From: Candidatus Buchananbacteria bacterium
GTDB taxonomy: Bacteria; Patescibacteriota; Patescibacteriia; 2-01-FULL-39-33
Direction: 5' to 3'
NCBI GenBank assembly: GCA_041666945.1
Contig: JBAYFY010000002.1
Location: forward strand, 129,076-193,075
Length of the DNA stretch: 64,000 nucleotides
Shown here: positions 2,799-60,200 of the stretch, one piece after another
Numbering within the stretch: the stretch's first letter is position 1
Layout: each line of letters begins with the position of its first letter
Translations under genes and position numbers: made by a program
Notes under the pieces: model-generated
Database searches by the model: none
What the model saw: the letters and a program-made list of their open reading frames with translations, nothing else
What the model was told of the DNA's origin: nothing

Positions 2799-3104
2799 TT
2801 AGATTTTTTCAATTCTGATTTCAGTGAAGCATTGGCGATGGCCGAATTTTTTGCGGTATCTGGTTTTTCTTTTGTATTTGATGCCGGTAACCTTGTCGGC
2901 GCGGCCTTGACCCAGGATTTTAGCCATAACTTTAGCGGCTAAGGTCGGTTCTCCCACCTCAACTTTTTCACCGTCGGCGACAAGCAGAGTTTCCAGCTCA
3001 ATTTTGGAACCGTCGGCTTCAGCCAACTTTTCCACTTTAATTTTATCGTTTTCTTTAACCAGGTATTGTTTCCCACCGGTCTTGATAACAGCAATTTTTG
3101 CCAT
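2799..3104 (-). CDS. rplU: 50S ribosomal protein L21
   Basis: MAKIAVIKTGGKQYLVKEND... typical bL21. Confidence 0.9.
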   Translation of the reverse strand: MAKIAVIKTGGKQYLVKENDKIKVEKLAEADGSKIELETLLVADGEKVEVGEPTLAAKVMAKILGQGRADKVTGIKYKRKTRYRKKFGHRQCFTEIRIEKI

Positions 3105-3179
3105 ATTTGTTTGTTTTGATATTTACTTAACTATTTTAGTCCAATTATCGTCTTTTGTCAAGGCGGTTGGCGGAAAGAT

Positions 3180-3223
3180 AAAAAAAGAGCGTTTTTTGTC
3201 CGAAGTTGGGGCAAAAAACGCTC
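3180..3223 (-). terminator. Intrinsic terminator after radical SAM gene
   Basis: Hairpin GAGCGTTTTTTG...ACAAAAAACGCTC followed by T7 on the minus strand. Confidence 0.5.
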
Positions 3224-3231
3224 AAAAGGAG

Positions 3232-4425
3232 CTAGCGAACTATTGATAATTTAACATCCGAACGGACTGTCTGACGGTAGCCCACGCCGTAGCGGCCTCG
3301 CAAATACCCATCCAGAATACCGCAACACTTTTGGTAGTGTGTTTCCCATTCTTTTATTTTTTGGGCGCTGAATTTTTCCGGATCCTTACCTTCCCGCAAG
3401 GCCTTGGCCTTAAGCCGGGCAAGAGTCGGGCCGTAGGGCTTTAGGGGGCCGATATGGACGCGCAAAGCGAAGTTTTCAATATTTCTTTCAATCATATTCA
3501 GCCATTTTACAAGCGTGTCCGGGTTGGGATTATACATTTGCGGGAAAATATCCAATCCCGCTTCCACCAGCGTGCGCAGGCAGAAAACCTGATCGGAAAT
3601 GGTGGCGTTAGCTTGAACGTTATCCCGCAGATTGGCGTTGTCTGTGCCTTTAATGGCCGCCAAAACCTTAACCGGAAAAACTGCCAGATGGCGGTAATAA
3701 TCAATCGGCCACAAGTGAGGGGTGGAGAGATTGGTGTCCACTTGCCCGACAATATCTTCTCCCCGTTCTTCAATCCGACGCCAGAGTTTAATGATCCAAT
3801 CCAGCGCTATGGTCGGTTCGCCGCCGGAAACGCGCAGGACTTTGATGTTCAAATCAACTCCGGTTTGTTTTTTGTAAATCTCTCGCACTTTATCCCGAGC
3901 CATTAAGAAGCTGTCAATAACGTCATCAACATCAACCAGCCATTTTTTTCCGGTTTCCCTTTGGCCGTCATTGAGTTCATTATCCACAAAACAATAAAGG
4001 CAGCCGCCGTCGCAGGCGCCGGAATGGAAATTGCAACCGGCCACCTGCAGGATAAACGGCGCATTATAATCTAAGGCACGAGACAATTCATAACCCGCAA
4101 TATGCTTGAACCACAAAGCGAAATCAAATTCCTGCTGCTTAAGGCATTCCTCAATTTCTCCCGGTGACAATCTGCTGGTATCAACAAATTTTTTGCCGTA
4201 AGCCCCAGCCGCTAAGGGGTCAACCTCTTTGGCGTTGAATTTAAAACGAAAAAGCTTTCGCCCGTCTTGGTTAGGCATTAATTCTATAACCTTACTGGTA
4301 TCCTTGCCTTGCAAGGTAGTGGAAAAATCAGCTACTAACAGTCGTCCGCCAGGCGTGACAATGGTTTGATGTAAGGCCTGCGCGCGTTCCAAGGGACTTG
4401 AGACATACGGTTGATCATTATTCAT
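3232..4425 (-). CDS. Radical SAM domain protein with ~130-aa unknown N-terminal domain
   Basis: AGCNFHSGACDGGCLYCF contains CxxxCxxC; GGE-like SGGEPT motif downstream; overlaps the upstream gene by 8 nt. Confidence 0.7.
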   Translation of the reverse strand: MNNDQPYVSSPLERAQALHQTIVTPGGRLLVADFSTTLQGKDTSKVIELMPNQDGRKLFRFKFNAKEVDPLAAGAYGKKFVDTSRLSPGEIEECLKQQEFDFALWFKHIAGYELSRALDYNAPFILQVAGCNFHSGACDGGCLYCFVDNELNDGQRETGKKWLVDVDDVIDSFLMARDKVREIYKKQTGVDLNIKVLRVSGGEPTIALDWIIKLWRRIEERGEDIVGQVDTNLSTPHLWPIDYYRHLAVFPVKVLAAIKGTDNANLRDNVQANATISDQVFCLRTLVEAGLDIFPQMYNPNPDTLVKWLNMIERNIENFALRVHIGPLKPYGPTLARLKAKALREGKDPEKFSAQKIKEWETHYQKCCGILDGYLRGRYGVGYRQTVRSDVKLSIVR

Positions 4426-4891
4426 AATCAGTTTCCCCCTCCTTTAAGAGTTTTATGAATTCTTGGGATAAATTCCGCAATCTTCTTCTGTCGTTTGCCG
4501 TTAGTGCTTTTAAAATTATTTCTCCCTGAAAATGCAGTTTTTTTAATAAAATGTAGCTTGAGCGGTTGGCGATGTTTATCTCGGTTATTAATTCGCTCAT
4601 TTCCATGCTCCACAAAGAAGTAAAAACCGAATTATCGTACCAATCTCCGTTTTGTCCGCGATAATAATGGTAGAATCGGCAATTCTTAAAGAAAACAGCA
4701 AAGCGTTTTTGCTCGCTTAATTTTTTCAGAATATTGCATATCCTGCCTATGCGGCTGTCAATTATCATCTGGCAACCGGTTGAACGACTGATTAGCTTTG
4801 GTCCGGAAAGATGGAAAATGGCGATGAGTAAATCCAATATGTCAAATTTTTCAGCCGGTGTTTTATTGCGCAGTTTTGTTGGCATATGCAT
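4418..4891 (-). CDS. Hypothetical protein with C-terminal winged-helix/HTH-like segment (probable start at MPTKLRNK)
   Basis: C-terminal SELITEINIANRSSYILLKKLHFQGEI resembles ArsR/MarR-type HTH; GAGGAGG RBS; own TTGACA-17-TAAGAT promoter upstream. Confidence 0.35.
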   Translation of the reverse strand: MHMPTKLRNKTPAEKFDILDLLIAIFHLSGPKLISRSTGCQMIIDSRIGRICNILKKLSEQKRFAVFFKNCRFYHYYRGQNGDWYDNSVFTSLWSMEMSELITEINIANRSSYILLKKLHFQGEIILKALTANDRRRLRNLSQEFIKLLKEGETDYE

Positions 4892-10900: not shown

Positions 10901-11035
10901 AAATTTGTAGTTAGTTAGCTTGATTTGTTGGTATTATAGCATGAAAGCCGGAAATTAAAAAATAGAGAGATGCAGAGATTGGGGTTTTTAAAAAAAATCG
11001 ACCCAGCGGCAGAACCACGGGGTCGATTTATCCAA

Positions 11036-11839
11036 TTAATCTTTGGTTATGGGAACTTCCACAATTACCGCTTTGTCTTGATCGCGTTCTTTGTCCAACT
11101 CTACGTCCACGCTGCAACGCAAAACGTGCCAGCCCACGACCGCCCCGCGGCCATGTTTGGTTTTGACTTTAGTGCCCAACGCCGGCAATTTGGCGATTAA
11201 ATCCTGATAGTATGATTCTTCATAAGCCAGACAGCATTTGAGGCGGCCGCAGATGCCGGACAAACGTTCGGCCCCGCGATGCACGATCTGTTGGTCTTCG
11301 GCGAAATCGGAAGAAACGTTGCCGAGTTTTTTCAGGTGGCTGCGGCAGCATTGGCCCAAGCCGCAAGAACCGACATCCCCCACTAATTTGGCCTCATCCC
11401 GAACGCCGATTTGCTGCAAACGTATCACGCGGTTGAATGTCCGGCTCAATTCCTTGACCAGCTCGCGGAAATCAATCCGGCCGTCGGCAATAAAAGCGAA
11501 AGACAGACGTTGGCCGTCCAAAGAAAAATGCGCGTCAACTATTTTCATTTCCAAATCGTAACGCTTGACCGTTTCCCGGCAATCTTGAATAACCTTGTCC
11601 TTGTCCTGGCGATTCTTTAAAAGCGCTTCCCAATCGTCGGTTTTAGCCAGGCGTTCCACGCTGTTAGAGACGGCCTTGGCTTCTTCTTCGCCCACTTCTT
11701 TGAGTTCCACGATTTTTCCCGCTTCTTCGCCGTATTCGGTGTTGATAACGGCAAAATCACCGATAGATAAAGTCAGGCCGCCAGTATTGGCGGCGCTGAG
11801 CTTTTCCCATTGGTTTATTTCAACTGTGGCGATAATCAT
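11036..11839 (-). CDS. PSP1 C-terminal domain protein (RicT/YaaT-like)
   Basis: CGRLKCCLAYE motif and conserved Cys pairs typical of PSP1/RicT. Confidence 0.6.
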   Translation of the reverse strand: MIIATVEINQWEKLSAANTGGLTLSIGDFAVINTEYGEEAGKIVELKEVGEEEAKAVSNSVERLAKTDDWEALLKNRQDKDKVIQDCRETVKRYDLEMKIVDAHFSLDGQRLSFAFIADGRIDFRELVKELSRTFNRVIRLQQIGVRDEAKLVGDVGSCGLGQCCRSHLKKLGNVSSDFAEDQQIVHRGAERLSGICGRLKCCLAYEESYYQDLIAKLPALGTKVKTKHGRGAVVGWHVLRCSVDVELDKERDQDKAVIVEVPITKD

Positions 11840-12703: not shown

Positions 12704-13411
12704 TTAATTTTTAGTTTTTTCCTTATCCTGCCTCACTTTGCCGAAATTAATGGCTTCGGCGATAACGCGAGTTATCAGGTCAATTGAATTGATGGCGTCG
12801 TCGTTAGCCGGAATCGGATAAGTGAACAGATCGGGATTGATATTGGTATCGCACGGCCCGATAATCGGGATTTTGCGTTTTTTGGCCTCTAAGACCGCGG
12901 TTTTTTCGCGTTTGGCGTCAAGAATAAAAACCGCTTCAGGCAAGCGATTCAAATTTTCCAGTCCGCCGACCATTTTGTCCAGGCGTTCTATTTCTTTGCT
13001 GATCATCACTTGTTCTTTTTTGGTGTATTTGGCCAGGGCGCCGGAATCGCGCTGTTCTTTCAGGGAGCGGTATTTTTTTATCAGTTTTCCGACATTGGCA
13101 AAATTAGTGAACAGCCCGCCGACCCAGCGTTCCTTGATGTAAGGCATGCCGGCTTGTTGGGCGTATTTTTCAATCAACGGTTTGGCTTGGCTTTTGGTGC
13201 CGACAAAAAGAATGTTGCCGCCGTTCTCGCCGATTTTTTCGGCGAACTCGGCCGCTTCTTTGAGTTTGGCCAAAGTTTGCTCCAAATCAATGATATGGAC
13301 TCCGTTGCGTTCGGCAAAGATGAACGGTTTCATCTTGGGGTGCCAGCGGCCTTTCTGATGGCCGAAGTGAACTCCCGATTGCAGGAGTTCCATTAATGTT
13401 GGTAAATTCAT
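12704..13411 (-). CDS. rpsB: 30S ribosomal protein S2
   Basis: LLQSGVHFGHQKGRWHPKMKPFIF... Confidence 0.9.
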   Translation of the reverse strand: MNLPTLMELLQSGVHFGHQKGRWHPKMKPFIFAERNGVHIIDLEQTLAKLKEAAEFAEKIGENGGNILFVGTKSQAKPLIEKYAQQAGMPYIKERWVGGLFTNFANVGKLIKKYRSLKEQRDSGALAKYTKKEQVMISKEIERLDKMVGGLENLNRLPEAVFILDAKREKTAVLEAKKRKIPIIGPCDTNINPDLFTYPIPANDDAINSIDLITRVIAEAINFGKVRQDKEKTKN

Positions 13412-30383: not shown

Positions 30384-30459
30384 TTGGTATTTAAATTGGC
30401 ATACATCCACTCTTAAAAAATAAAAACAAAACAAAAATCACGTCCACGACTCGGGGACA

Positions 30460-30530
30460 GGGGCTCGAACCCCGATTAACGGCTTCAAAGGCCGCTGTCC
30501 TACCATTAGACGATCCCCGAGTTATAGACG
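30460..30530 (-). tRNA. tRNA-Gln (anticodon TTG)
   Basis: Cloverleaf hand-folded: acceptor TCGGGGA/TCCCCGA (U1-A72), D-arm GTCT/GGAC, anticodon loop CTTTGAA, T-arm CGGGG-TTCGAGC-CCCTG, discriminator G; CCA not encoded. Confidence 0.8.
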
Positions 30531-30603
30531 CGATTTTTCATTAACGCCCTGCTTGATTTGAATTATTTGCTCCGGGGCAAAGCCCCTGTCCAGGGTTGGC
30601 GTC
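30513..30603. repeat. 91-bp direct repeat copy A (tRNA-Gln 5' 18 nt plus 70 bp upstream)
   Basis: Near-identical (1 mismatch) to 30689-30779; contains GGGGCaaaGCCCC hairpin. Confidence 0.8.
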
Positions 30604-30688
30604 AAATCCTGCGCCAGCTCGGATTTGCCGACGCTCGACTGCGTCTGTCGACTGGTCTCGCTTCCAACCAGTCGCAGATTACTGCGAC

Positions 30689-30779
30689 CCATTAGACGAT
30701 CCCCGAGTTATAGACGCGATTTTTCATTAACGCCCTGCTTAATTTGAATTATTTGCTCCGGGGCAAAGCCCCTGTCCAG
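30689..30779. repeat. 91-bp direct repeat copy B
   Basis: Duplicate of 30513-30603 separated by an 85-bp unique, hairpin-rich spacer. Confidence 0.8.
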
Positions 30780-52279: not shown

Positions 52280-53353
52280 TCAGCCGATAATCCCTCCGCC
52301 GAGCAGTTTGTCTTTATCGTAAAAAACAATTGATTGGCCGGGCGTGGCGGCGCGAGGCGGACGGATGAATTCCGCCACATAACGCCGGCCGATTTTCCGG
52401 ACTCGGCATTTTTCCGGCCGGCCTCGGTAGCGGATTTGCGCTTCGCAGGACAGGGGGAATTTGATTTCCCTCATTAGCCAATTAGCCGACTCAAAAAACA
52501 CTTGGCGGTTGCGCAGCTTGGCGCTGTTGATTTTTTTTGACACTGCCAACTCATTGCGGGAACGGTTAAAGCCGATTACGTACCAGGGGCCGCCGGATAA
52601 GCCGATGCCGCTGCGCTGGCCCAAAGTGTAAAGAGCCAGCCCTTGATGCGCGCCGATAACCTCGCCTTTTTCATTAACGATTTTCCCCGGTTTCAGCTTC
52701 AGATATTTTTTTAAAAATTCTATATGGCTTCGGCCCACAAAACAAATCTCCTGGCTGTCGGGCTTGGCGTGCACGGCCAAGCGGAATTTTTTGGCTAATC
52801 CCCTTGTTTGTTTTTTGGTGTAATCGGCCAAGGGGAAAAGCAAATGTTTCAGTTGCTCCTGTTCCAAGTTATACAAAAAATACGTCTGATCTTTATTCTT
52901 GTCTTTGGGGCGGCATAAATCAAACTGATTTTTAGCTCGCGGCTTGAGTCGCGCGTAATGGCCGGTGGCCACGTAATCGGCGTCAAAAACAGTTCGCGCG
53001 TAATCCAATAATAATTTGAACTTGATGAATTTGTTGCAAGCCACGCAAGGATTGGGCGTGCGGCCGGCCTTGTATTCGTTCAAGAATTCGTCAACAATTA
53101 TTTTTTTGAACTGTTTGCCGAAATTGACTTTGTGGATCGGAATATCCAGCACGCGCGCCACTTCCCTGGCCTCGTTCCAGGCCGCCAAACTGCAACAGCG
53201 GTTCTCGCCGTACTTCTCTCCGCTGGGGAACCAGAATTGCATAAACACTCCCACGACGTTATAGCCCTGTTTTTTTAACAGCGCCGCGGCCGCCGAAGAA
53301 TCCACTCCGCCGGACATGGCCGCCACGACTCTTTTGTTGCTGGTTTTTTTCAT
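52280..53353 (-). CDS. mnmA: tRNA-specific 2-thiouridylase MnmA
   Basis: VVAAMSGGVDSSAAAALL PP-loop; catalytic Cys contexts. Confidence 0.85.
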   Translation of the reverse strand: MKKTSNKRVVAAMSGGVDSSAAAALLKKQGYNVVGVFMQFWFPSGEKYGENRCCSLAAWNEAREVARVLDIPIHKVNFGKQFKKIIVDEFLNEYKAGRTPNPCVACNKFIKFKLLLDYARTVFDADYVATGHYARLKPRAKNQFDLCRPKDKNKDQTYFLYNLEQEQLKHLLFPLADYTKKQTRGLAKKFRLAVHAKPDSQEICFVGRSHIEFLKKYLKLKPGKIVNEKGEVIGAHQGLALYTLGQRSGIGLSGGPWYVIGFNRSRNELAVSKKINSAKLRNRQVFFESANWLMREIKFPLSCEAQIRYRGRPEKCRVRKIGRRYVAEFIRPPRAATPGQSIVFYDKDKLLGGGIIG

Positions 53354-53518
53354 ATCTCAATCATAACCGATATTTTTCAGAAAAACAAACGATTAAAGTT
53401 CGTTGCTTGACAATTATGGCGGATTTGTTATAATCATTAATTAAGATACCGTATTATCCAATTAAGCTCTTTTCAATCTGACTGCCAAGCGTAACAGCAA
53501 CGAGAAGGAGGAATGAAT

Positions 53519-53689
53519 ATGATTGCAAACCTATTTTTTGTGATGGCCGTAATTTCCACATTAGTGTTGGGAACATTGTCACTTTTAGACAATTATAATA
53601 ATCAACCAAATATAAAATTGAAGGTAGCGTTATTTATTTCTTTTATTTTTGTAGCTGTATCCCAGATTTTTGCAAATCTGGGATACTAA
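53519..53689 (+). CDS. 56-aa two-TM hydrophobic peptide (toxin/holin/bacteriocin-like) in low-GC segment
   Basis: GGAGG RBS 8 nt upstream; MIANLFFVMAVISTLVLGTLSLLDNYNNQPNIKLKVALFISFIFVAVSQIFANLGY. Confidence 0.35.
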   Translation: MIANLFFVMAVISTLVLGTLSLLDNYNNQPNIKLKVALFISFIFVAVSQIFANLGY

Positions 53690-53829
53690 CTAAGCAGAAC
53701 TTTGTTTATATCAAGAATGCACTTTTGACTTGGCATAGTAATATTTTATTGCTATAATGCTTTATTATCAAATTACGTTCTTTTATATAGTTAATATATA
53801 GTTAACAAACAACGAAAGGAGTAGATTCT

Positions 53830-54180
53830 ATGGGATCTGATAGGACTCGTTTTAAGGGTTCACTGTTTTGTCCATTAACCATGGATCAATTGACTGTCAA
53901 TAGACAAATAGATGAGCTTGATAATTTAGAGGCTTCAAATGAATCTTTAATAGTCACAAGATCTCGGCTCGAGACCGAATTAAAATTGATGAATGGTAAA
54001 GAGCGTCTGATTTGTCAAATTATGACAAGTATTGAATGCTTTATTGACGGAGATATCAACGATAAAATCCGGGAAAAGATAAAGAAACTATTGGATTGTT
54101 ATCGGAAAATAATCAGAGTTTCCTTAGTTGATGAGCTTTATGATATTGAGCGGGAGATAGCTAATATTTTTTACCAATAG
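53830..54180 (+). CDS. Hypothetical protein (AT-rich, likely acquired)
   Basis: 116 aa; AAGGAG RBS; ~30% GC. Confidence 0.35.
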   Translation: MGSDRTRFKGSLFCPLTMDQLTVNRQIDELDNLEASNESLIVTRSRLETELKLMNGKERLICQIMTSIECFIDGDINDKIREKIKKLLDCYRKIIRVSLVDELYDIEREIANIFYQ

Positions 54181-54282
54181 ATTAAGCGTGTATTAAAGTG
54201 ATTAAATGATTTTGTATTTTAACACCGGATAGATAAATGTTCGGTGTTATTTTAATTAATTTTAATGTTTTATTTTTTATTT

Positions 54283-54470
54283 GCTGCGGGTCAGGGACTT
54301 CCGCTCTCATCCGCCGCCAGAAAGCGGCGGATTCGTTTGTCCTGGGTCAGCGCTGAATACTCCTTATGGTCGCATTCATCAACGCTCGTCTACGCTTTTC
54401 GGCTTCTGCCTCAAAGCTTGTATCGCTTCTGTCCTATTCGAGTCCCACCCCGCATTAAATAATTTCAAAA
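54283..54470 (-). pseudogene. Degenerate tRNA-Gln(CTG) copy
   Basis: Starts with GCTGCGGGTCAGGGACT identical to 59633-59649 (tRNA 3' end) and ends with GTCCTA...ACCCCGCATTA resembling tRNA 5' end; ~120 bp of unrelated sequence between; T-arm destroyed. Confidence 0.5.
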
Positions 54471-54570
54471 GGCACCCTTGTGGTGCCTTTTGAAATTACC
54501 AAACTGACTGACTCGGTCTAGAACCGATCCATATCAAGTATTATAAGGGCTTTTCGGGAATATTGCCAGC

Positions 54571-54607
54571 GGTGATTTGAGGCGTCTCAGTCGGGTAGAA
54601 ATATGCT
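54571..54607. repeat. ~35-bp direct repeat, left copy (candidate island boundary)
   Basis: TTGAGGCGTCTCAGTCgggtaGAAaTAtGCtATG vs 59593-59628 TTGACGCGTCTCAGTCatttGAAtTAGCATG. Confidence 0.5.
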
Positions 54608-54608
54608 A

Positions 54609-54754
54609 TGAAATGCGACAAATGCGACAGTACTTTAGCACTTCATAAATACAGGATTTTAGGCGGTAAAATGTTACAATGTTACACAATTTGGCAGGTT
54701 TTAGAGTGTAACATTTTAGTGGCCAAAATGAGAATGAGACAAATGAGACACTAA
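54609..54754. repeat. Cluster of AATGNNACA iteron-like short direct repeats
   Basis: aaatgcgacaaatgcgacag; aatgttacaatgttacacaat; aatgagaatgagacaaatgagacac. Confidence 0.6.
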
Positions 54755-54912
54755 AACGGGGTTTTTTAAAATAGTCAAATTTATGGATATTTTATCTTAG
54801 TTTAGAATAAAATCAGTGTGAGACAGCAAAAAATAACTGCCTCATTTTTCAATAAACGAAAACCGCCACCCAAGGATAAACCCTGAGTGGCGTGTTGTGC
54901 GAATAGTTGCGC

Positions 54913-55185
54913 CTACTTGGAGGCGAGTGCTTTGAGTTCGGCGCTAAACTTCTCATCGACGCCACTCTCAGCAAGGAATGTTTTGAGGAGTTCTTTAACT
55001 CGATCATCGAGCCCTGCGTCCCGGGCCGCCATAATGGCACCGCGTCGTGCGATTCTACCTTCCATCGAAGCTGGCGACGTCTCATTCGCAATCGCCAATT
55101 CGGCATTGGCCAGTTCCCTTTGCGCATCAATGACTTTGCCAATAGCCGCAGTAACATTCATATTCAACTTATCGAGCTTGTTCAT
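54913..55185 (-). CDS. Hypothetical coiled-coil protein (third gene of island operon)
   Basis: 90 aa, Ala/Glu-rich heptads; 24-nt gap to upstream gene. Confidence 0.4.
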   Translation of the reverse strand: MNKLDKLNMNVTAAIGKVIDAQRELANAELAIANETSPASMEGRIARRGAIMAARDAGLDDRVKELLKTFLAESGVDEKFSAELKALASK

Positions 55186-55209
55186 CTTGTCGCCCTCCTT
55201 TCAGAAGTT

Positions 55210-55614
55210 TCAACGTGTTGGCAGAAATCCCAACGATCCCCAATAATCAGGCTCGAAGGAGCGATCGAATGTCAACCCGTCGGCGTCGAAGTGACCAATC
55301 GAAAGCTGATTATCGTTCCAGTCAATCGTCGGAACTTCTGGGTGTAATTCTGATTTTCTGCAACCCGCAAGATCTCGCAATTCATTCTCTGTTGCGAATC
55401 GCATACCCTGTAGTGCCAGCAGTTCTTCCACCGAGACCGGCCGGCAACCCCACCATTTCATCAGGATGGAGATCCGTTTGAAATTCGTGCCGCGTGCCGC
55501 TTGGAAGAAGGCAAGTTTGCCGTCGCCTTGCGGGCGGTAAGCTTTTTGACACAGAACTTTGCCGCGGATATAGGCCACGATGACCCACAGATAATCCAGA
55601 ATAGCCTGTTTCAT
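55210..55614 (-). CDS. Hypothetical protein (second gene of island operon)
   Basis: 134 aa; 11-nt gap to upstream gene. Confidence 0.4.
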   Translation of the reverse strand: MKQAILDYLWVIVAYIRGKVLCQKAYRPQGDGKLAFFQAARGTNFKRISILMKWWGCRPVSVEELLALQGMRFATENELRDLAGCRKSELHPEVPTIDWNDNQLSIGHFDADGLTFDRSFEPDYWGSLGFLPTR

Positions 55615-55625
55615 GTCGCATCTCC

Positions 55626-56147
55626 TTATTGAAGTTCGTTGATGGCTTCAGTGAGCGAATCGCTGTCTTTTGCGTAGCTGACGCGTTTCGCCGTTTCAAA
55701 AAGTTTGAATACTCCCTCACAGAGGTTCCCGCGATGGGTATTCTGATAGAGGGCGATCATTTTTTGGATAACGATCATGAGCGCCCGCGCCTTCTTGGTA
55801 TCCTTCGATTCTTCCATGATGTCGGGAGTTCTGAGTTCCTCCTCGAATCTCATCTCACCCTTACGGGTATCAGAGAGATAGCGAATGGAAACCCTGACGC
55901 ATTCATTCTTGTAATCCTTCGGTTCAACGACGATTCCCTCGATTTCCCAAATCGTCGCGGTCGGATGCCGCCTTCTGGCGGAAATAATCTTGACGGTAAT
56001 ATCATACGCATCATGGGTGTGAATATAGTCTGGTGTATGAAATTCTACTGTCCGCTCACCCAGCTCAGTATCGAAAAGGGCAAGCATGAGATCGAGTTTT
56101 GATGGACCGCCGTCCACCAGGTGTGTTTCTTCTTTTCTTTGTGTCAT
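55626..56147 (-). CDS. Hypothetical protein (first gene of island operon)
   Basis: 173 aa; AAAGGAG RBS; strong promoter upstream. Confidence 0.45.
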   Translation of the reverse strand: MTQRKEETHLVDGGPSKLDLMLALFDTELGERTVEFHTPDYIHTHDAYDITVKIISARRRHPTATIWEIEGIVVEPKDYKNECVRVSIRYLSDTRKGEMRFEEELRTPDIMEESKDTKKARALMIVIQKMIALYQNTHRGNLCEGVFKLFETAKRVSYAKDSDSLTEAINELQ

Positions 56148-56246
56148 ACGACACTCCTTTCAATGTGCTGCGCATTAGCCGAGGAACGCGCACAACCTCC
56201 TTATTCCCAGCGGGAACGACTTAGCTATACAGCCAAGAATTACTAT

Positions 56247-56275
56247 ATATTAGCATATAGACATTATTTTGTCAA
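56247..56275 (-). promoter_or_regulatory. Strong sigma70 promoter for island three-gene operon
   Basis: Minus strand TTGACA-17-TAATAT, followed by 5' UTR hairpin GAACGCGCACAAC/GTTGTGCGCGTTCC. Confidence 0.55.
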
Positions 56276-56390
56276 GTATTTTATCCACAATTAACCAAAA
56301 TATTACAGATATTTACCTAAAATTAAACAAAAAAATGCCAGTAATTTATGACATTTTAATCGCTAATATTAATAATTCCTGCTTTTCTTA

Positions 56391-56696
56391 CTATTTCTGC
56401 TTTTCCTGGTATTCTAGCGTTTTTTCCATCGGAGAAAGGCCACCCAAAGCCTTATGAGGGAAGTAATTCCAGGCGTCAGTTATTGTTTCCAGAATGTTGC
56501 TTAATTCCGAGACATCGCCGCCCCGGTCGAACATAGCCATAATCGTCGACAGATCATCATTATCTTCCTCTTGATAAATGGCATCAAGAATATCTTCCAG
56601 TTCAAAGTCGCTCTCGGTTTCTGCAAGCAAATCAATAATATCTTGTTGGATTGTTTCGCGTTCAGATAGGATTTGTTGTTGGGATAGATTTTGCAT
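56391..56696 (-). CDS. Small highly acidic protein (possible DNA-mimic/anti-restriction-like)
   Basis: 101 aa with about 28 Asp/Glu (EDNDD, DFELEDILD); adjacent to recombinase. Confidence 0.4.
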   Translation of the reverse strand: MQNLSQQQILSERETIQQDIIDLLAETESDFELEDILDAIYQEEDNDDLSTIMAMFDRGGDVSELSNILETITDAWNYFPHKALGGLSPMEKTLEYQEKQK

Positions 56697-56810
56697 AAGA
56701 GTTGGTTATATATTAGCAAATAATTAGAAATTATTGAAATTTAGTTATCAACAGCTTGCCAACTTAGCCCTCCTGGACTCCCTATCGGGATTGCGTTATT
56801 CATTAGTTAT

Positions 56811-58124
56811 ATGAATGAAACAACAAAGCCCGTGAGGGCTACGGGCACGATAATAGCCCCACCAAAGGTCAAATACTGCCTTTATGCAAGGAAATCAACG
56901 GAATCAGAGGAACGGCAAATACTCTCTATTGATAGCCAGATCAAGGAGATGCTTTTGCTGGCTGAAAAGGAGGGTTTGGAGGTTGTAACTATGAAGCGTG
57001 AATCCCACTCCGCCAAGGAAACTGGCCAGCGTCCGATTTTTAACGAGATTGTTGAGGAGATAAAGACGGGACAGTATAATGGTATTCTGACGTGGGCGCC
57101 GGATCGCATCAGTAGGAATGCCGGCGACTTAGGTAAAATCGTGGATCTGATGGATTCTGGGCTATTAATAGATATCAGGACTTACGGCCAAAGATTCGGC
57201 AATAATCCTAATGAGAAATTCTTGCTGATGATCTTAGGATCGCAAGCCAAATTAGAAAATGACAATAAGGCGGTCAATGTCAAAAGAGGATTAAGAAGCA
57301 GGTGCGCTATGGGCTGGAGGCCGGGTCAGGCGCCAACTGGCTATTTGAATGAAAAGCATGTTGATAAAAAATGCCAATGCCGCTTAGATCCTAAGCGAGC
57401 GCCGGTAATTAAACAGATGTTTGAAAAAGTAGCCTATGAAAGCTGGAGTGGCAGAAAAGTATATAGATGGCTTAAGGACATTGATTTCAAGACTAAAAAT
57501 GGCAAGCACCTGGTGCTTGCTAACATCTACATTCTTCTTAGAAATCCATTTTATTACGGCGAATTCGAATATCCGGTTAAAAGCGGCGTTTGGTATACTG
57601 GAAAGCATACGCCGATTATTACTAGGGAAGTTTTCGATAAGGTTCAACTATTACTAAGTGACCGCTACGTATCAAGGACGGAAAGCAAGGAATTTGCCTT
57701 CACCAAATTGTTCAAATGCGGCTATTGCGGATCTGGCATCTCGGCCGATGAGAAATTCAAGAAACTTAAAGATGGCGGCACAAACCGCCATGTCTATTAC
57801 TTCTGCACCAAAACGAGAGATATTGATTGCAAAAACCAGCCGATAAATGAAACTGATTTGATAAGCGAGCTAAGCCGCTTAATGGACAAGATTGATCTGG
57901 ACGAGCTTGGCGTCAAGAAAAAACTTGAAGATGAAATGAGAAGGTATAATCGATTCAATGTCGGAGTGTTGGGCAAAAAACAAAAGGAGTTTAATAAGGA
58001 CGTGGATATTAGGAATTATGCCAAATACTTGCTCAGGGATGGCACTATTTTGGAAAAGAGAGAATTACTGGGTTGCCTGAAAAGCAAAGCGATATTAAGG
58101 GATAGGAAAATTATTTTAGAATAA
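56811..58124 (+). CDS. Large serine recombinase (resolvase catalytic domain, recombinase domain, zinc ribbon)
   Basis: YARKSTESEERQILSIDSQ catalytic Ser motif; ...CGYCGS...C..C zinc ribbon; 437 aa. Confidence 0.8.
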   Translation: MNETTKPVRATGTIIAPPKVKYCLYARKSTESEERQILSIDSQIKEMLLLAEKEGLEVVTMKRESHSAKETGQRPIFNEIVEEIKTGQYNGILTWAPDRISRNAGDLGKIVDLMDSGLLIDIRTYGQRFGNNPNEKFLLMILGSQAKLENDNKAVNVKRGLRSRCAMGWRPGQAPTGYLNEKHVDKKCQCRLDPKRAPVIKQMFEKVAYESWSGRKVYRWLKDIDFKTKNGKHLVLANIYILLRNPFYYGEFEYPVKSGVWYTGKHTPIITREVFDKVQLLLSDRYVSRTESKEFAFTKLFKCGYCGSGISADEKFKKLKDGGTNRHVYYFCTKTRDIDCKNQPINETDLISELSRLMDKIDLDELGVKKKLEDEMRRYNRFNVGVLGKKQKEFNKDVDIRNYAKYLLRDGTILEKRELLGCLKSKAILRDRKIILE

Positions 58125-58154
58125 AGACAAATTAAAAAAAATTAAAAACACTAA

Positions 58155-59441
58155 TTAAACTTTCTCGCATATAGCAACCATTAATTTTTCCAATACCTCT
58201 TTATATCTCGATAAAATTTCTCTATGGAGCATCGACCAATTATCATCCTTATAATAATCAAATAATTTCTCTTTTATTAAAATATCAGTCAGTTCTGTCG
58301 TAATTTCTTCGTCGGGATGAGCCAGTTTGGAAACAATGCGATTAATATTTCTAAGACCATAAATACCGGGGTCAACATTTATTTTTCTTTCTAATAATAT
58401 AAAATAAAATTTATTTATGCTTCCTTTTAAATCTTTTATTTCGAATTCATTAGACATTTCTTTTGTAATTTCTAATTTAATAATTTCATCATCAAAATTC
58501 CCCAACATAGATCTTAATACTATACAGTAACCAACTAACATGGCCTTATCCTTAGCTGGCTTTCCTTGTTGATATATTTCTTCTGATGACGAAAAAATAG
58601 GAAAGCCGAACTTCTCATCAATCAAGCTAAATTTATTTATTCTAACCCTTAATTCTGCAATAGCACTGATAATATCCGCAGTCTGATATTCTTCCCTTAT
58701 TTCATTTTGTTCTTTTATCTCCTTGCCTTGCTTTTCTTTATCCTTATTTAATTGTTCTTTTTGCAATATCTCTTTAGCTCTTTCAGAACCCAACTCTAAT
58801 ATTCTTTGATGAACTAATGGCACTATCCCATTTCGCCATGTAGAAATTTCTTCTACAAAAATAATTTCGGTTTTTTTTCCTACAATGAAATTATAGTTAT
58901 CATAATAAAAATTAATATATTCCTTCGGCTTAACTTTTAAAAGTTTTTTAAGTGCTATTTTTCTTGTCTCAATAGTTTGTCTGTCATCTTCGAAACATTT
59001 TTTTAAAAAAAACTCTATTTCTACCATATCCTCGCCCGATTTTTCAAGATACACAAAGCATTTCTCTAAATCATATTCTTTAATTTCTCCTAAAGTTATA
59101 TTAGCTTCGAATATTATTTTTATTTTTTTAACAATCTCGTTGTGAAAATATTGAATATCCGTCAAATACCCTATCATCATAGCAATATCACCATCTTTAT
59201 CGGTTGTGTGTGCAATTTCTTTTAATATTTCAGCGGAGTCTCCAGTCTTAAAATATGTTAAATCGCTCACAAAATAATGGGAGACCGAAGTTTTTCTAAA
59301 TTTTTTATATGCTTCGTATATTTGTCTTGGGAATATAGCGTCACCAATTTTAACCATCTCATCAGAAATATGGGTTGCCTTTTCTGCATTTTCAGCAGAA
59401 TAAAGATCAGCTATTAAGTTTGCATTATAATCAGAGGCCAT
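58155..59441 (-). CDS. Hypothetical protein, strongly AT-rich (about 28% GC) cargo gene
   Basis: 428 aa; composition sharply different from housekeeping genes. Confidence 0.45.
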   Translation of the reverse strand: MASDYNANLIADLYSAENAEKATHISDEMVKIGDAIFPRQIYEAYKKFRKTSVSHYFVSDLTYFKTGDSAEILKEIAHTTDKDGDIAMMIGYLTDIQYFHNEIVKKIKIIFEANITLGEIKEYDLEKCFVYLEKSGEDMVEIEFFLKKCFEDDRQTIETRKIALKKLLKVKPKEYINFYYDNYNFIVGKKTEIIFVEEISTWRNGIVPLVHQRILELGSERAKEILQKEQLNKDKEKQGKEIKEQNEIREEYQTADIISAIAELRVRINKFSLIDEKFGFPIFSSSEEIYQQGKPAKDKAMLVGYCIVLRSMLGNFDDEIIKLEITKEMSNEFEIKDLKGSINKFYFILLERKINVDPGIYGLRNINRIVSKLAHPDEEITTELTDILIKEKLFDYYKDDNWSMLHREILSRYKEVLEKLMVAICEKV

Positions 59442-59592
59442 ATTATTAGTAATAACAATAGTATTTTATTAAAAGAAGTCAATAAATATGCTATATTTTT
59501 ACCTGAATTTTATCTGCCTGCAGTATATAACAAATCTACAAAGAAATAAAGGTAAAAACACCACGGTAAAATCGTGATGTTTTTGAAGCTAG

Positions 59593-59628
59593 ATCATTGA
59601 CGCGTCTCAGTCATTTGAATTAGCATGT
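59593..59628. repeat. ~35-bp direct repeat, right copy
   Basis: See 54571-54607. Confidence 0.5.
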
Positions 59629-59633
59629 ATTGG

Positions 59634-59704
59634 CTGCGGGTCAGGGACTCGAACCCCGATAACATCCTCCAGAGGGATGCGTCCTACCATTAGACGAACC
59701 CGCA
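59634..59704 (-). tRNA. tRNA-Gln (anticodon CTG)
   Basis: Hand-folded: acceptor TGCGGGT/ACCCGCA (U1-A72), D-arm GTCT/GGAC, anticodon loop CTCTGGA, T-arm CGGGG-TTCGAGT-CCCTG, discriminator G. Confidence 0.8.
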
Positions 59705-59761: not shown

Positions 59762-59790
59762 CTTGACAGAATTAAATATCTGTGATAAAA
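59762..59790 (+). promoter_or_regulatory. Sigma70 promoter of rnpB
   Basis: TTGACA-17-TAAAAT, about 7 nt upstream of P1 5' strand. Confidence 0.6.
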
Positions 59791-59797
59791 TTATAAC

Positions 59798-60200
59798 ACT
59801 GAATATGACGGATAGCTACTCTTTGGCTTAGGCCAAAGGGAGGAAAGTCCGAACACCCTTTCTGGCGCAAGCCGGGATGTCGCGGTAATGGGTAACGCCC
59901 ACCCGGACGGTCGCAAGGCCGGCCGAGGACCAGTTCCACAGAGACAATACTAACGAGATACGCAAGTATTTCGTGAAAGGTGAAAAGTGTGATGGTGTCT
60001 TAAACTAAGCAAGAGATATCTCCTTAGCTTAAAGCTACGTCACTCGGCCTCCAGCAATGGAGAGCTTGTGGTAAACTCTACCTGGTGCAACCTCGTTTTG
60101 AGGGCTTGATCATGCCGGTAACGGCAATGACAGACAGATGGCTATCATCCGTTCCGTTAAGGAACGGATACAGAATTCGGCTTACAGTCATATTCAGTTA
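59798..60200 (+). ncRNA. rnpB: RNase P RNA (bacterial type A-like)
   Basis: P4 strands GGAGGAAAGTCCGAAC and ACAGAATTCGGCTTA; GGTAACGCC, CCACAGAGA, GAAAGGTGAAAAGTG conserved blocks; P1 CTGAATATGAC/GTCATATTCAG. Confidence 0.75.

Follow-up and report, generated by a model that had tools for sequence, protein, structure and literature searches.

A serine-recombinase island at the 3' tip of a tRNA-Gln gene in a Candidatus Buchananbacteria genome

Boundaries of the integrated element

The window analysed here, 64,000 nucleotides (nt) of contig JBAYFY010000002.1 (positions 129,076 to 193,075), belongs to a metagenome-assembled genome (MAG) of Candidatus Buchananbacteria (Patescibacteria), and ENA contig L001 is identical to it. 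Next to its tRNA-Gln(CTG) gene lies an island of 5.13 kb, which is very probably one copy of a small integrative element moved by its own large serine recombinase (LSR), with the ends, core and integration proposed below. Because island copies keep the same ends across different flanking contexts, the mobile unit is delimited at approximately 54504-59636, with the ends CTG (54504-54506) and TGGCTG (59631-59636). The tRNA-Gln(CTG) gene, the presumed integration target, was confirmed on the minus strand at 59631-59704 (ARAGORN; Rfam tRNA, 57.6 bits). Its last six encoded bases, which comprise the CCA end plus the discriminator region, read TGGCTG on the plus strand (59631-59636) and constitute the common core defined by junction alignment.

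Relatives of the locus were searched for in one-per-species genomes with mnmA (52280-53353) as the anchor. Loci L210-L213 were obtained by a metagenome scan with a 21-mer of the conserved left segment and L122 by exact-protein look-up, while exact-protein look-ups of the LSR and mnmA gave no match. The four right ends aligned (the window, two of L213, and L210) all read ...CAGTCATTTGAATTAG(C/T)(A/G)TGTATTGGCTG and are identical through TGGCTG, beyond which they split into the tRNA (CGGGTCAGG), the next island (ACTGACTCGG) or unrelated DNA. The eight left ends are identical from CTGACTGACTCGG / CTGACTGACTCGGTCTAGAACCGATCC inward and follow three classes of flank, namely a structured element termed X plus a hairpin (window, L122, L210, L212), the gene end of a different recombinase, LSR', reading ...AACTGG (L003, L211, L213), and the right end of another copy, reading ...GTATTGG (L213). 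Crossover presumably took place at bases within the CTG of TGGCTG, in the encoded CCA/discriminator tip. An independent assembly, Logan contig L002 (SRR6484324_162858), stops at window position 59634, inside the TGGCTG core; a break there is expected if the assembly graph branches at this point, and it is a hint that right-hand contexts in that sample are not all alike.

The first-pass annotation of this DNA had proposed an integrated island of about 5 kb beside tRNA-Gln(CTG), and the state of the locus in relatives bears this out. An empty site, which the earlier annotation proposed to look for in related genomes, was found in L005, a genome of a different species, in which RecJ, RNase P RNA, tRNA-Gln(CTG), ~80 bp and mnmA follow one another with no insert. 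Other relatives hold different or tandem islands. In the closest of them, L003 (mnmA 88% identical), homology to the window ends at 53390 and the insert is another kind of island, at least 7 kb long, which encodes an LSR of 481 residues (LSR'); behind it begins a window-type island, whose left end is represented by 92 bases, 93% identical to window 54504-54595, at the end of the sequence examined. The order in L213 is tRNA-Gln(CTG), two window-type islands in tandem, and the 3' end of the LSR' gene, while L210 displays four ordinary-looking genes, X, and an island copy lacking the recombinase, its homology with the window also stopping at 53390. The interval between mnmA and tRNA-Gln is thus hypervariable among relatives.

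Two repeats had previously been put forward as att-like junctions of the island, and the eight left and four right ends show both assignments to be wrong. The first is a 17-mer, GCTGCGGGTCAGGGACT, which corresponds to the 3' end of tRNA-Gln and has exact copies in the window only at 54283 and 59633. The duplication itself is exact and beyond chance, as originally reported: no further match occurs in the window even with 2 mismatches, shuffled sequences lead to an expectation of zero, and 21 of 22 positions agree when the flanks are included. The left copy, however, sits 205 nt outside the unit, within X. An island of ~5.35 kb bounded by the two copies (54283-54299 and 59633-59649), formed by integration into the tRNA gene, with a displaced 3' fragment at its far end and with X and the hairpin either part of the island or left over from an earlier element of this type into which the recombinase island later inserted, is therefore unlikely. 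It would account for a match that lies far beyond chance and reaches upstream to TATT, for the agreement of the tRNA-like end of X with the tRNA variant found in the same lineage (T in the window; A in the X of L210 and L122 and in the tRNA of L213), and for a second X-like element, X2, beside tRNA-Gln(TTG), which a duplicated part of that tRNA likewise flanks on both sides. It conflicts with the tandem junction of L213, where a right end passes straight into a left end without X or the 17-mer, and with the left ends behind LSR', which likewise lack X. Moreover, no tyrosine integrase (Phage_integrase) was found among open reading frames (ORFs) of at least 58 residues in 53391-59630, an upstream duplication of at least 12 nt of the tRNA end occurs in none of the 14 other tRNA-linked LSR loci, and the compensatory changes in X described below are not expected of a decaying remnant.

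The second repeat is an imperfect direct repeat originally given as ~35 bp. Only a 16-nt core of it, TTGA[G/C]GCGTCTCAGTC at 54577 and 59597, is convincing (0.05 matches expected from shuffles); the remaining length is not. Both 16-mers are internal to the unit, the left one lying 71 nt inside the left end and the right one ending 21 nt before the right-hand CTG. Crossover at their (G/A)GTC motif was our first boundary model, and it was dropped when the metagenome loci proved homologous outside both 16-mers. That the 16-mers (54577, 59597) are attL/attR crossover sites enclosing an island of 5.0 kb is now scarcely credible, although the repeat is significant, is conserved in all sister copies, and has an analogous pair, GGACAGGTCNCTTT, in L106, a related locus at tRNA-Asn, and although the (G/A)GTC motif recurs ~20 nt from many tRNA ends. 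In every flank context the ~70 nt outside the left 16-mer and the 21 nt outside the right one travel together with the island, and in L106 the two ends have the tRNA-Asn tip TCTGCTCCC in common, which lies ~75 nt beyond the left repeat.

The recombinase and its relatives

The LSR gene (56811-58124, plus strand) is intact and encodes 437 residues. As the first-pass annotation had recognized from the motif YARKST...SIDSQ, which contains the nucleophile serine, the product is a large serine recombinase. It displays the three domains of this class in Pfam, Resolvase (PF00239, 1.8e-17, residues 24-168), Recombinase (PF07508, 1.6e-15) and Zn_ribbon_recom (PF13408, 7.7e-6; 26.6 bits against a cut-off of 25.3), with 86 residues C-terminal to the zinc ribbon. 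The catalytic stretch reads LYARKSTESEERQILSIDSQ, in which a Y-x-R-x-S-T motif surrounds the nucleophile serine. Among PHROGs the LSR best matches the integrase family phrog_95 (2.7e-61), and the nearest solved relative is SPbeta YokA (1.6e-12, aligned over residues 25-404). The LSR belongs to no named NCBIfam subfamily (CcrB, XisF, others), since its scores lie far below the cut-offs of CcrB (111 vs 900) and XisF (73 vs 375).

Relatives of the LSR with 45-72% identity were found in IMG/VR contigs (n = 39). In 14 of the 39 the recombinase gene is followed downstream by a tRNA gene of opposite orientation, within 117-149 bp in four of them; tRNAs for Gln, Ser, Asp, Glu, Asn and Trp are represented beside related LSRs. 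In L106 (54% identity) the tRNA-Asn tip TCTGCTCCC is present at both ends of the element and the internal layout is as in the window. The left-end layout, which comprises the core, ~8 nt, GGTYYRGAAC, ~85 nt and AATGNGACAAATGNGAC, was observed in 11 instances, including four distant loci (L098, L102, L106, L109). An IMG/VR scan for the conserved left-end 21-mer gave no match.

Three IMG/VR contigs each carry two copies of the LSR family (3300000970_000154, 3300014205_009253 and 3300042286_000458; locus pairs L089/L090, L094/L102 and L109/L112, respectively), which suggests that tandem islands are common in the family. The first recombinase of L102 is followed downstream by a left-end motif (13265-13375).

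LSR' (L003 78-1523; L211 6674-8119; L213 about 10957-11208) is distantly related to the window LSR, with ~42% identity over their best-matching segment. The LSR' island ends ...AACTGG-CTG, so that the same tRNA-Gln tip was apparently used, and stands in tandem with window-type islands. The cargo of the LSR' island includes an XRE-type regulator and a protein of 589 residues; the left end of the L003-type island was searched for and not located.

Organization of the element ends

The right end (P arm, 59597-59633) comprises the 16-mer TTGACGCGTCTCAGTC (59597-59612), followed by ATTTGAATTAGCATGTAT and TGG, and adjoins the shared crossover triplet CTG at 59634-59636. A terminator scan identified an island-borne, terminator-like hairpin at 59554-59584 (minus strand), just downstream of the tRNA end, which is kept in the sister copies.

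The left end (P' arm, 54504-54912) is a non-coding control region that starts with the CTG core at 54504-54506. Close to this core lies a T-arm look-alike, ACTGACTCGGTCTAGAACC, containing GGTCTAGAAC at 54515-54524. The P' sequence ACTGACTCGGTCTAGAACC agrees with CGGGTCAGGGACTCGAACC of the tRNA side of the target (B') at 9 of 11 positions, from +9 to +19, and in L106 the P' sequence GGTTTGGAACC likewise resembles the B' sequence GGGATCGAACC. The P' arm thus appears, as judged from sequence, to imitate the antisense T-arm of the tRNA gene. The T-arm is the most conserved part of any tRNA gene.

Further inward, P' contains the left 16-mer (54577-54592), AATGCGACAAATGCGAC (54612-54628) and AATGAGACAAATGAGAC (54733-54749). 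A 32-nt imperfect inverted repeat, 75% complementary and built around ATGTTACA/TGTAACAT, extends over 54656-54729, flanked by the two AATGNGAC pairs, and has been lost by deletion in L122. The window contains two copies of the motif AATGMGACAAATGMGAC, where motif statistics predict 0.02. The 16-mers, the AATGNGAC-AAATGNGAC (AATGCGAC) pairs and the 32-nt inverted repeat may be accessory sites bound by the recombinase, by a directionality factor or by a regulator.

A promoter scan revealed an outward-facing promoter-like site at 54569-54540 (minus strand), CTGGCA-18-TATAAT, with a perfect TATAAT. The -10 box does not vary among the eight island copies compared. Such a promoter could read into the flank formed by the hairpin and X or, in a circle or a tandem copy, across the joint.

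The hairpin itself (54460-54498), which has perfect 17-nt arms and T-runs on both strands, lies outside the island. A hairpin of different sequence occupies the matching position in L122, L210 and L212. The window hairpin is probably the terminator that originally followed tRNA-Gln, or else one that is shared with X.

Proposed integration mechanism

We propose that the LSR joins an element site, P-TGGCTG-P', to a chromosomal site formed by the last bases of tRNA-Gln(CTG) plus its T-arm (B'), with strand exchange within the CTG of TGGCTG. The element would bring its own TGG, which would leave the tRNA gene whole with an encoded CCA end; the gene is intact after the insertion. The element would also supply the terminator hairpin (59584-59554) behind the tRNA, so that the tRNA transcript would end there after integration. 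In this model the LSR would anchor on the T-arm plus the tip, including GGACTCGAAC in B', and the imitation of B' by P' would explain why tRNA genes for Gln, Ser, Asp, Glu, Asn and Trp occur next to LSR relatives. On the opposite side of the crossover nearly any sequence would do, whether a plain trailer or the end of an island, of the same or another kind; this near-indifference is suggested by the three unrelated left contexts described above. A free other side would in turn allow new copies to insert between an older copy and the tRNA, leading to tandem arrays and a hypervariable accretion zone. The circular or tandem junction would read ...GCATGTATTGG-CTG-ACTGACTCGG, and an empty site would join the hairpin region 54460-54503 directly to CTGCGGGTCAGG. 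The element may still be mobile.

Several observations weigh against this mechanism. The left junction of the window holds only the CTG of the 6-nt core. P and P' display no dyad symmetry about CTG (~4/25 by a by-eye reading), which is unusual, as the attP of serine integrases is usually dyad-symmetric, and an inverted 7-8-mer (CTCAGTCA ... TGACTGAC) is centred ~10 nt left of the presumed crossover. No empty site was found in the same species, the mnmA of L005 being only 66% identical, and no directionality factor was recognised in the element. Neither a circular junction nor an excised form was seen, and the junction pattern was unmatched in IMG/VR. Textbook LSR behaviour does not predict recombination between attP and a hybrid site, and the tandem arrays may instead have arisen by homologous recombination between copies.

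Element X, a tRNA-Gln-like structured sequence

Immediately left of the hairpin, and outside the island, lies X (54283-54456, minus strand), a structured, tRNA-Gln-like element that holds the left 17-mer. This stretch of ~190 bp had been described as a degenerate tRNA-like remnant, a view contradicted by its fold and by its conservation. The fold z-scores are -5.2 and -6.7 relative to shuffled sequence on the two strands, and homologues are present in L122, L210 and L212 at the same place, left of the hairpin and the island left end. Across the four sequences 95% of cells are paired and 19 of 48 pairs have changed on both sides (for example CCGCCGCC/GGCGGCGG vs GTTGTCGC/GCGACAAC), a value reached in 0 of 500 shuffles, while slid controls display only 1-4 such pairs. 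These four related sequences are suggestive of a conserved structured element.

The consensus of X folds on both strands, with -38 kcal/mol and 50 pairs on the minus strand and -33 kcal/mol and 36 pairs on the plus strand. Its two ends carry tRNA-Gln 3' sequence in opposite orientations (GGGACUCGAA... and ...AGUCCCUGACCCGCAGC). In L122 the tRNA-like end finishes in CCA, with a clean terminator 45 nt further on the same strand, and in L210 the acceptor-like closing stem is not conserved. No Rfam family matched 54283-54456 at E up to 1 (4227 families), ARAGORN identified no transfer-messenger RNA (tmRNA), and an IMG/VR scan with a 16-nt X pattern gave 85 matches, none of which holds X. An intron-bearing tRNA was considered and rejected, as X is far shorter than group I introns and has no D or anticodon arm; it also falls outside what the survey of tRNA introns in Patescibacteria describes. 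The tRNA-like domain of tmRNA and YrlA, a bacterial Y-RNA-like RNA, resemble X in that tRNA-type acceptor/T-stem sequence is joined to extra hairpins, beside tRNA genes.

A covariance model of X matches, besides L122, L210 and L212, a second site in the window at 30569-30683 (minus strand; 47.6 bits, E ~1e-10). This element, X2, lies 48 nt upstream of tRNA-Gln(TTG) (30448-30521) and had no Rfam match over 30569-30683 at E up to 10. X2 is bracketed by a 91-nt direct repeat of 99% identity (30503-30593 and 30689-30779) around a 95-nt body, the repeat consisting of the upstream region of tRNA-Gln(TTG) plus the first 18 nt of the tRNA. X could be a small RNA gene derived from tRNA-Gln; alternatively, it could be the conserved terminus of tRNA-Gln-targeting elements of an older class.

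A wider reading would combine these elements with the recombinase family. The LSR clade would be one of "tRNA-tip" integrases, for which T-arm plus tip is a sufficient half-site and the other half-site is largely ignored, whose specificity could be shifted between tRNA species by a few bases, and which would form natural tandem cargo arrays; X and X2 would represent an undescribed tRNA-Gln-derived structured RNA family of Patescibacteria, expressed from the strand with the tRNA-like 3' end and perhaps tied to the landing sites as decoys or regulators of tRNA-Gln processing. We regard this combination as conceivable and rather doubtful.

Cargo genes

This copy of the island carries five small cargo genes. 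A gene encoding 428 residues (58155-59441, minus strand, from the ORF list; NCBI tag WCT16_02240) has 29% GC against 45% for the window, close to the ~28% given earlier. A gene divergent from that of the LSR (56391-56696, minus strand; WCT16_02230) encodes an acidic protein of 101 residues, with an isoelectric point (pI) of 4.05 and 24 D+E versus 6 K+R residues. The remaining three form a block on the minus strand (54913-56147) encoding 173 (55626-56147), 134 (55210-55614) and 90 residues (54913-55185). Upstream of the block lies the promoter-like sequence TTGACA-17-TAATAT (56275-56247, minus strand), and its terminator is at 54892-54864. The earlier description of these genes was therefore accurate as to the high acidity of the 101-residue protein, the low GC of the 428-residue gene, the promoter-like site of the three-gene block and a composition foreign to the host, from which the cargo differs in GC.

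Its proposal that the three-gene operon might constitute an undescribed defence system found no support. The cargo proteins have no match in Pfam, NCBIfam, PHROGs or PADLOC, including PADLOC-DB 2.0 at E up to 0.01, where the sole match in the island was a weak DrmA hit on the zinc-ribbon region of the LSR. The block is not conserved as a unit, and sister islands hold different subsets of the three genes. The defence reading is further weakened by the relatives of the 173-residue protein, which in the contexts looked up are single genes among housekeeping genes in other Patescibacteria, and of the 428-residue protein, which are solitary among housekeeping genes in the two contexts looked up, for example nusB-X-HU (X here standing for the relative itself). 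The 428-residue protein has 37 related clusters, and those with a source name are all from Patescibacteria. An IMG/VR scan with the 173- and 428-residue proteins gave no relatives. Only a ~65-residue N-terminal region of the 134-residue protein is common to 65 small unannotated proteins, and these relatives have no Pfam domain.

Sister copies keep the ends and the LSR at ~86-90% nucleotide identity, while the cargo is swapped. The first island of L213 carries an N6/N4 DNA methylase and a MutH-like endonuclease and lacks the 173-residue gene, the L211 island contains two radical-SAM/SPASM genes, and in L122 an unrelated ORF of 84 residues with a hydrophobic sequence replaces the 90-residue gene. 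The L213 genes (3104-4544) form a type II restriction-modification pair, N6_N4 methylase (271 residues) and MutH-like endonuclease (206 residues), placed between the recombinase and the acidic-protein gene.

A PHROG scan of the island, in which only the LSR matched, identified no phage structural, packaging or lysis genes, and the element carries no phage, replication or transfer genes. This bears on the possibility that the island is a decayed prophage or phage satellite, the 5-kb copy being a stump left by deletion. Such an origin would fit the source of the LSR relatives, all 39 of which come from IMG/VR and are catalogued as viral contigs, some of them 20-55 kb long, as well as the best PHROG match of the LSR, a phage integrase family. 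The cargo, however, has no PHROG match, and the five sister copies are all 2-6 kb long with intact ends and swapped small cargo, as befits a modular element and not random stumps. A phage origin is accordingly very unlikely, and a modular element moved by its LSR is preferred.

The 101-residue protein belongs to a very conserved family in Patescibacteria, with more than 700 clusters at ~65% identity. Its AlphaFold2 model is a helical bundle with a predicted local distance difference test (pLDDT) score of 84; structure searches gave no informative structural match, and no function is supported by them. An anti-restriction, regulatory or excision role is possible, and by its position the protein is a candidate directionality factor. 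Close relatives are encoded in L225-L228 (6001-6336) and L229 (6001-6333). In a Taylorbacteria-like genome such relatives begin 4 nt past a type III restriction gene (ResIII) and directly precede mnmA, and another stands beside a type I restriction-modification system accompanied by SduA_C and NYN genes. The genes neighbouring these relatives vary by sample (a 177-residue ORF plus Bro-N vs SLFN_AlbA_2).

Comparison with known systems

The island resembles serine-integrase elements (SPbeta SprA/YokA, SCCmec CcrA/B, phiC31, Bxb1) in its three-domain recombinase with a catalytic serine, in the single recombinase gene at the element edge, in the absence of long flanking direct repeats, and in its core of 3-9 nt, compared with 5-8 bp reported (PMC8092301). 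It differs from them in targeting the extreme 3' tip of a tRNA gene that stays intact, in having one arm that seems to imitate the tRNA T-arm and two arms that are not mirror images, and in the conserved direct repeats and iteron-like pairs inside both ends. Among Mycobacterium abscessus prophages, those with serine integrases have cores of 5-8 bp and sit inside ORFs, and those with tyrosine integrases have cores of 25-76 bp and occupy tRNA genes (PMC8092301).

With the tRNA islands of tyrosine integrases (Williams 2002; Islander, PMC4383910) the element shares its position at the 3' end of a tRNA gene that is restored by element sequence, the host genes that flank it, and an empty site in a relative. 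In contrast to these islands, the recombinase is a serine recombinase and no Phage_integrase domain was found. The core is 3-6 nt long and not tens of nt, which explains why there is no displaced tRNA fragment at the far end, and the only nearby tRNA fragment, in X, lies outside the unit.

The tycheposons of Prochlorococcus, 474 of 501 of which carry tRNA-associated tyrosine recombinases, with partial tRNA copies between neighbours (bioRxiv 10.1101/2020.12.28.424599), are also small cargo elements beside a specific tRNA, where newcomers push older copies outward, and display tandem and degenerate copies and hypervariable content next to the tRNA. Here, by contrast, the recombinase is an LSR, copies abut through a 6-nt core, and the host is a Patescibacterium.

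A literature search, which was not exhaustive, yielded no description of an LSR targeting a tRNA tip, nor of such elements in Patescibacteria. We regard the island as a small, modular, tandem-accreting serine-recombinase element of a little-studied phylum, with a tRNA-tip target and an arm that appears to mimic the T-arm. Serine integrases are valued genome-engineering tools, and those known insert for the most part at arbitrary positions in coding or intergenic DNA. If the proposed mechanism is true, a T-arm-anchored clade that spares tRNA genes would offer conserved, predictable landing pads, and tRNA targeting would not be peculiar to tyrosine integrases. Patescibacteria have tiny genomes and few described mobile elements. 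Islands of 2-6 kb that swap cargo and accrete at tRNA-Gln represent a concrete route of gene flux in these bacteria, the cargo moved across copies comprising restriction-modification, radical-SAM and orphan genes. The leads of most interest are the acidic 101-residue family and the tRNA-Gln-like element X.

Flanking features

The stretch between mnmA and X (53391-54282) has a low GC content (30.5%), is part of the variable interval and is absent from relatives. It contains two orphan ORFs, of 58 (53513-53689) and 116 residues (53830-54180), each preceded by a near-consensus promoter (53407-53434, 12/12, and 53730-53758, 11/12, respectively). These two ORFs and the 90-residue cargo ORF have no relatives among the loci examined. 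L003 and L210 carry a membrane-protein gene and a flavoprotein gene at this position instead. On the other side of the island, a full-length bacterial class A RNase P RNA (59800-60200, plus strand; 151 bits) is divergent from tRNA-Gln(CTG), and the promoter-like sequence TTGACA-17-TAAAAT lies near it at 59763-59791.

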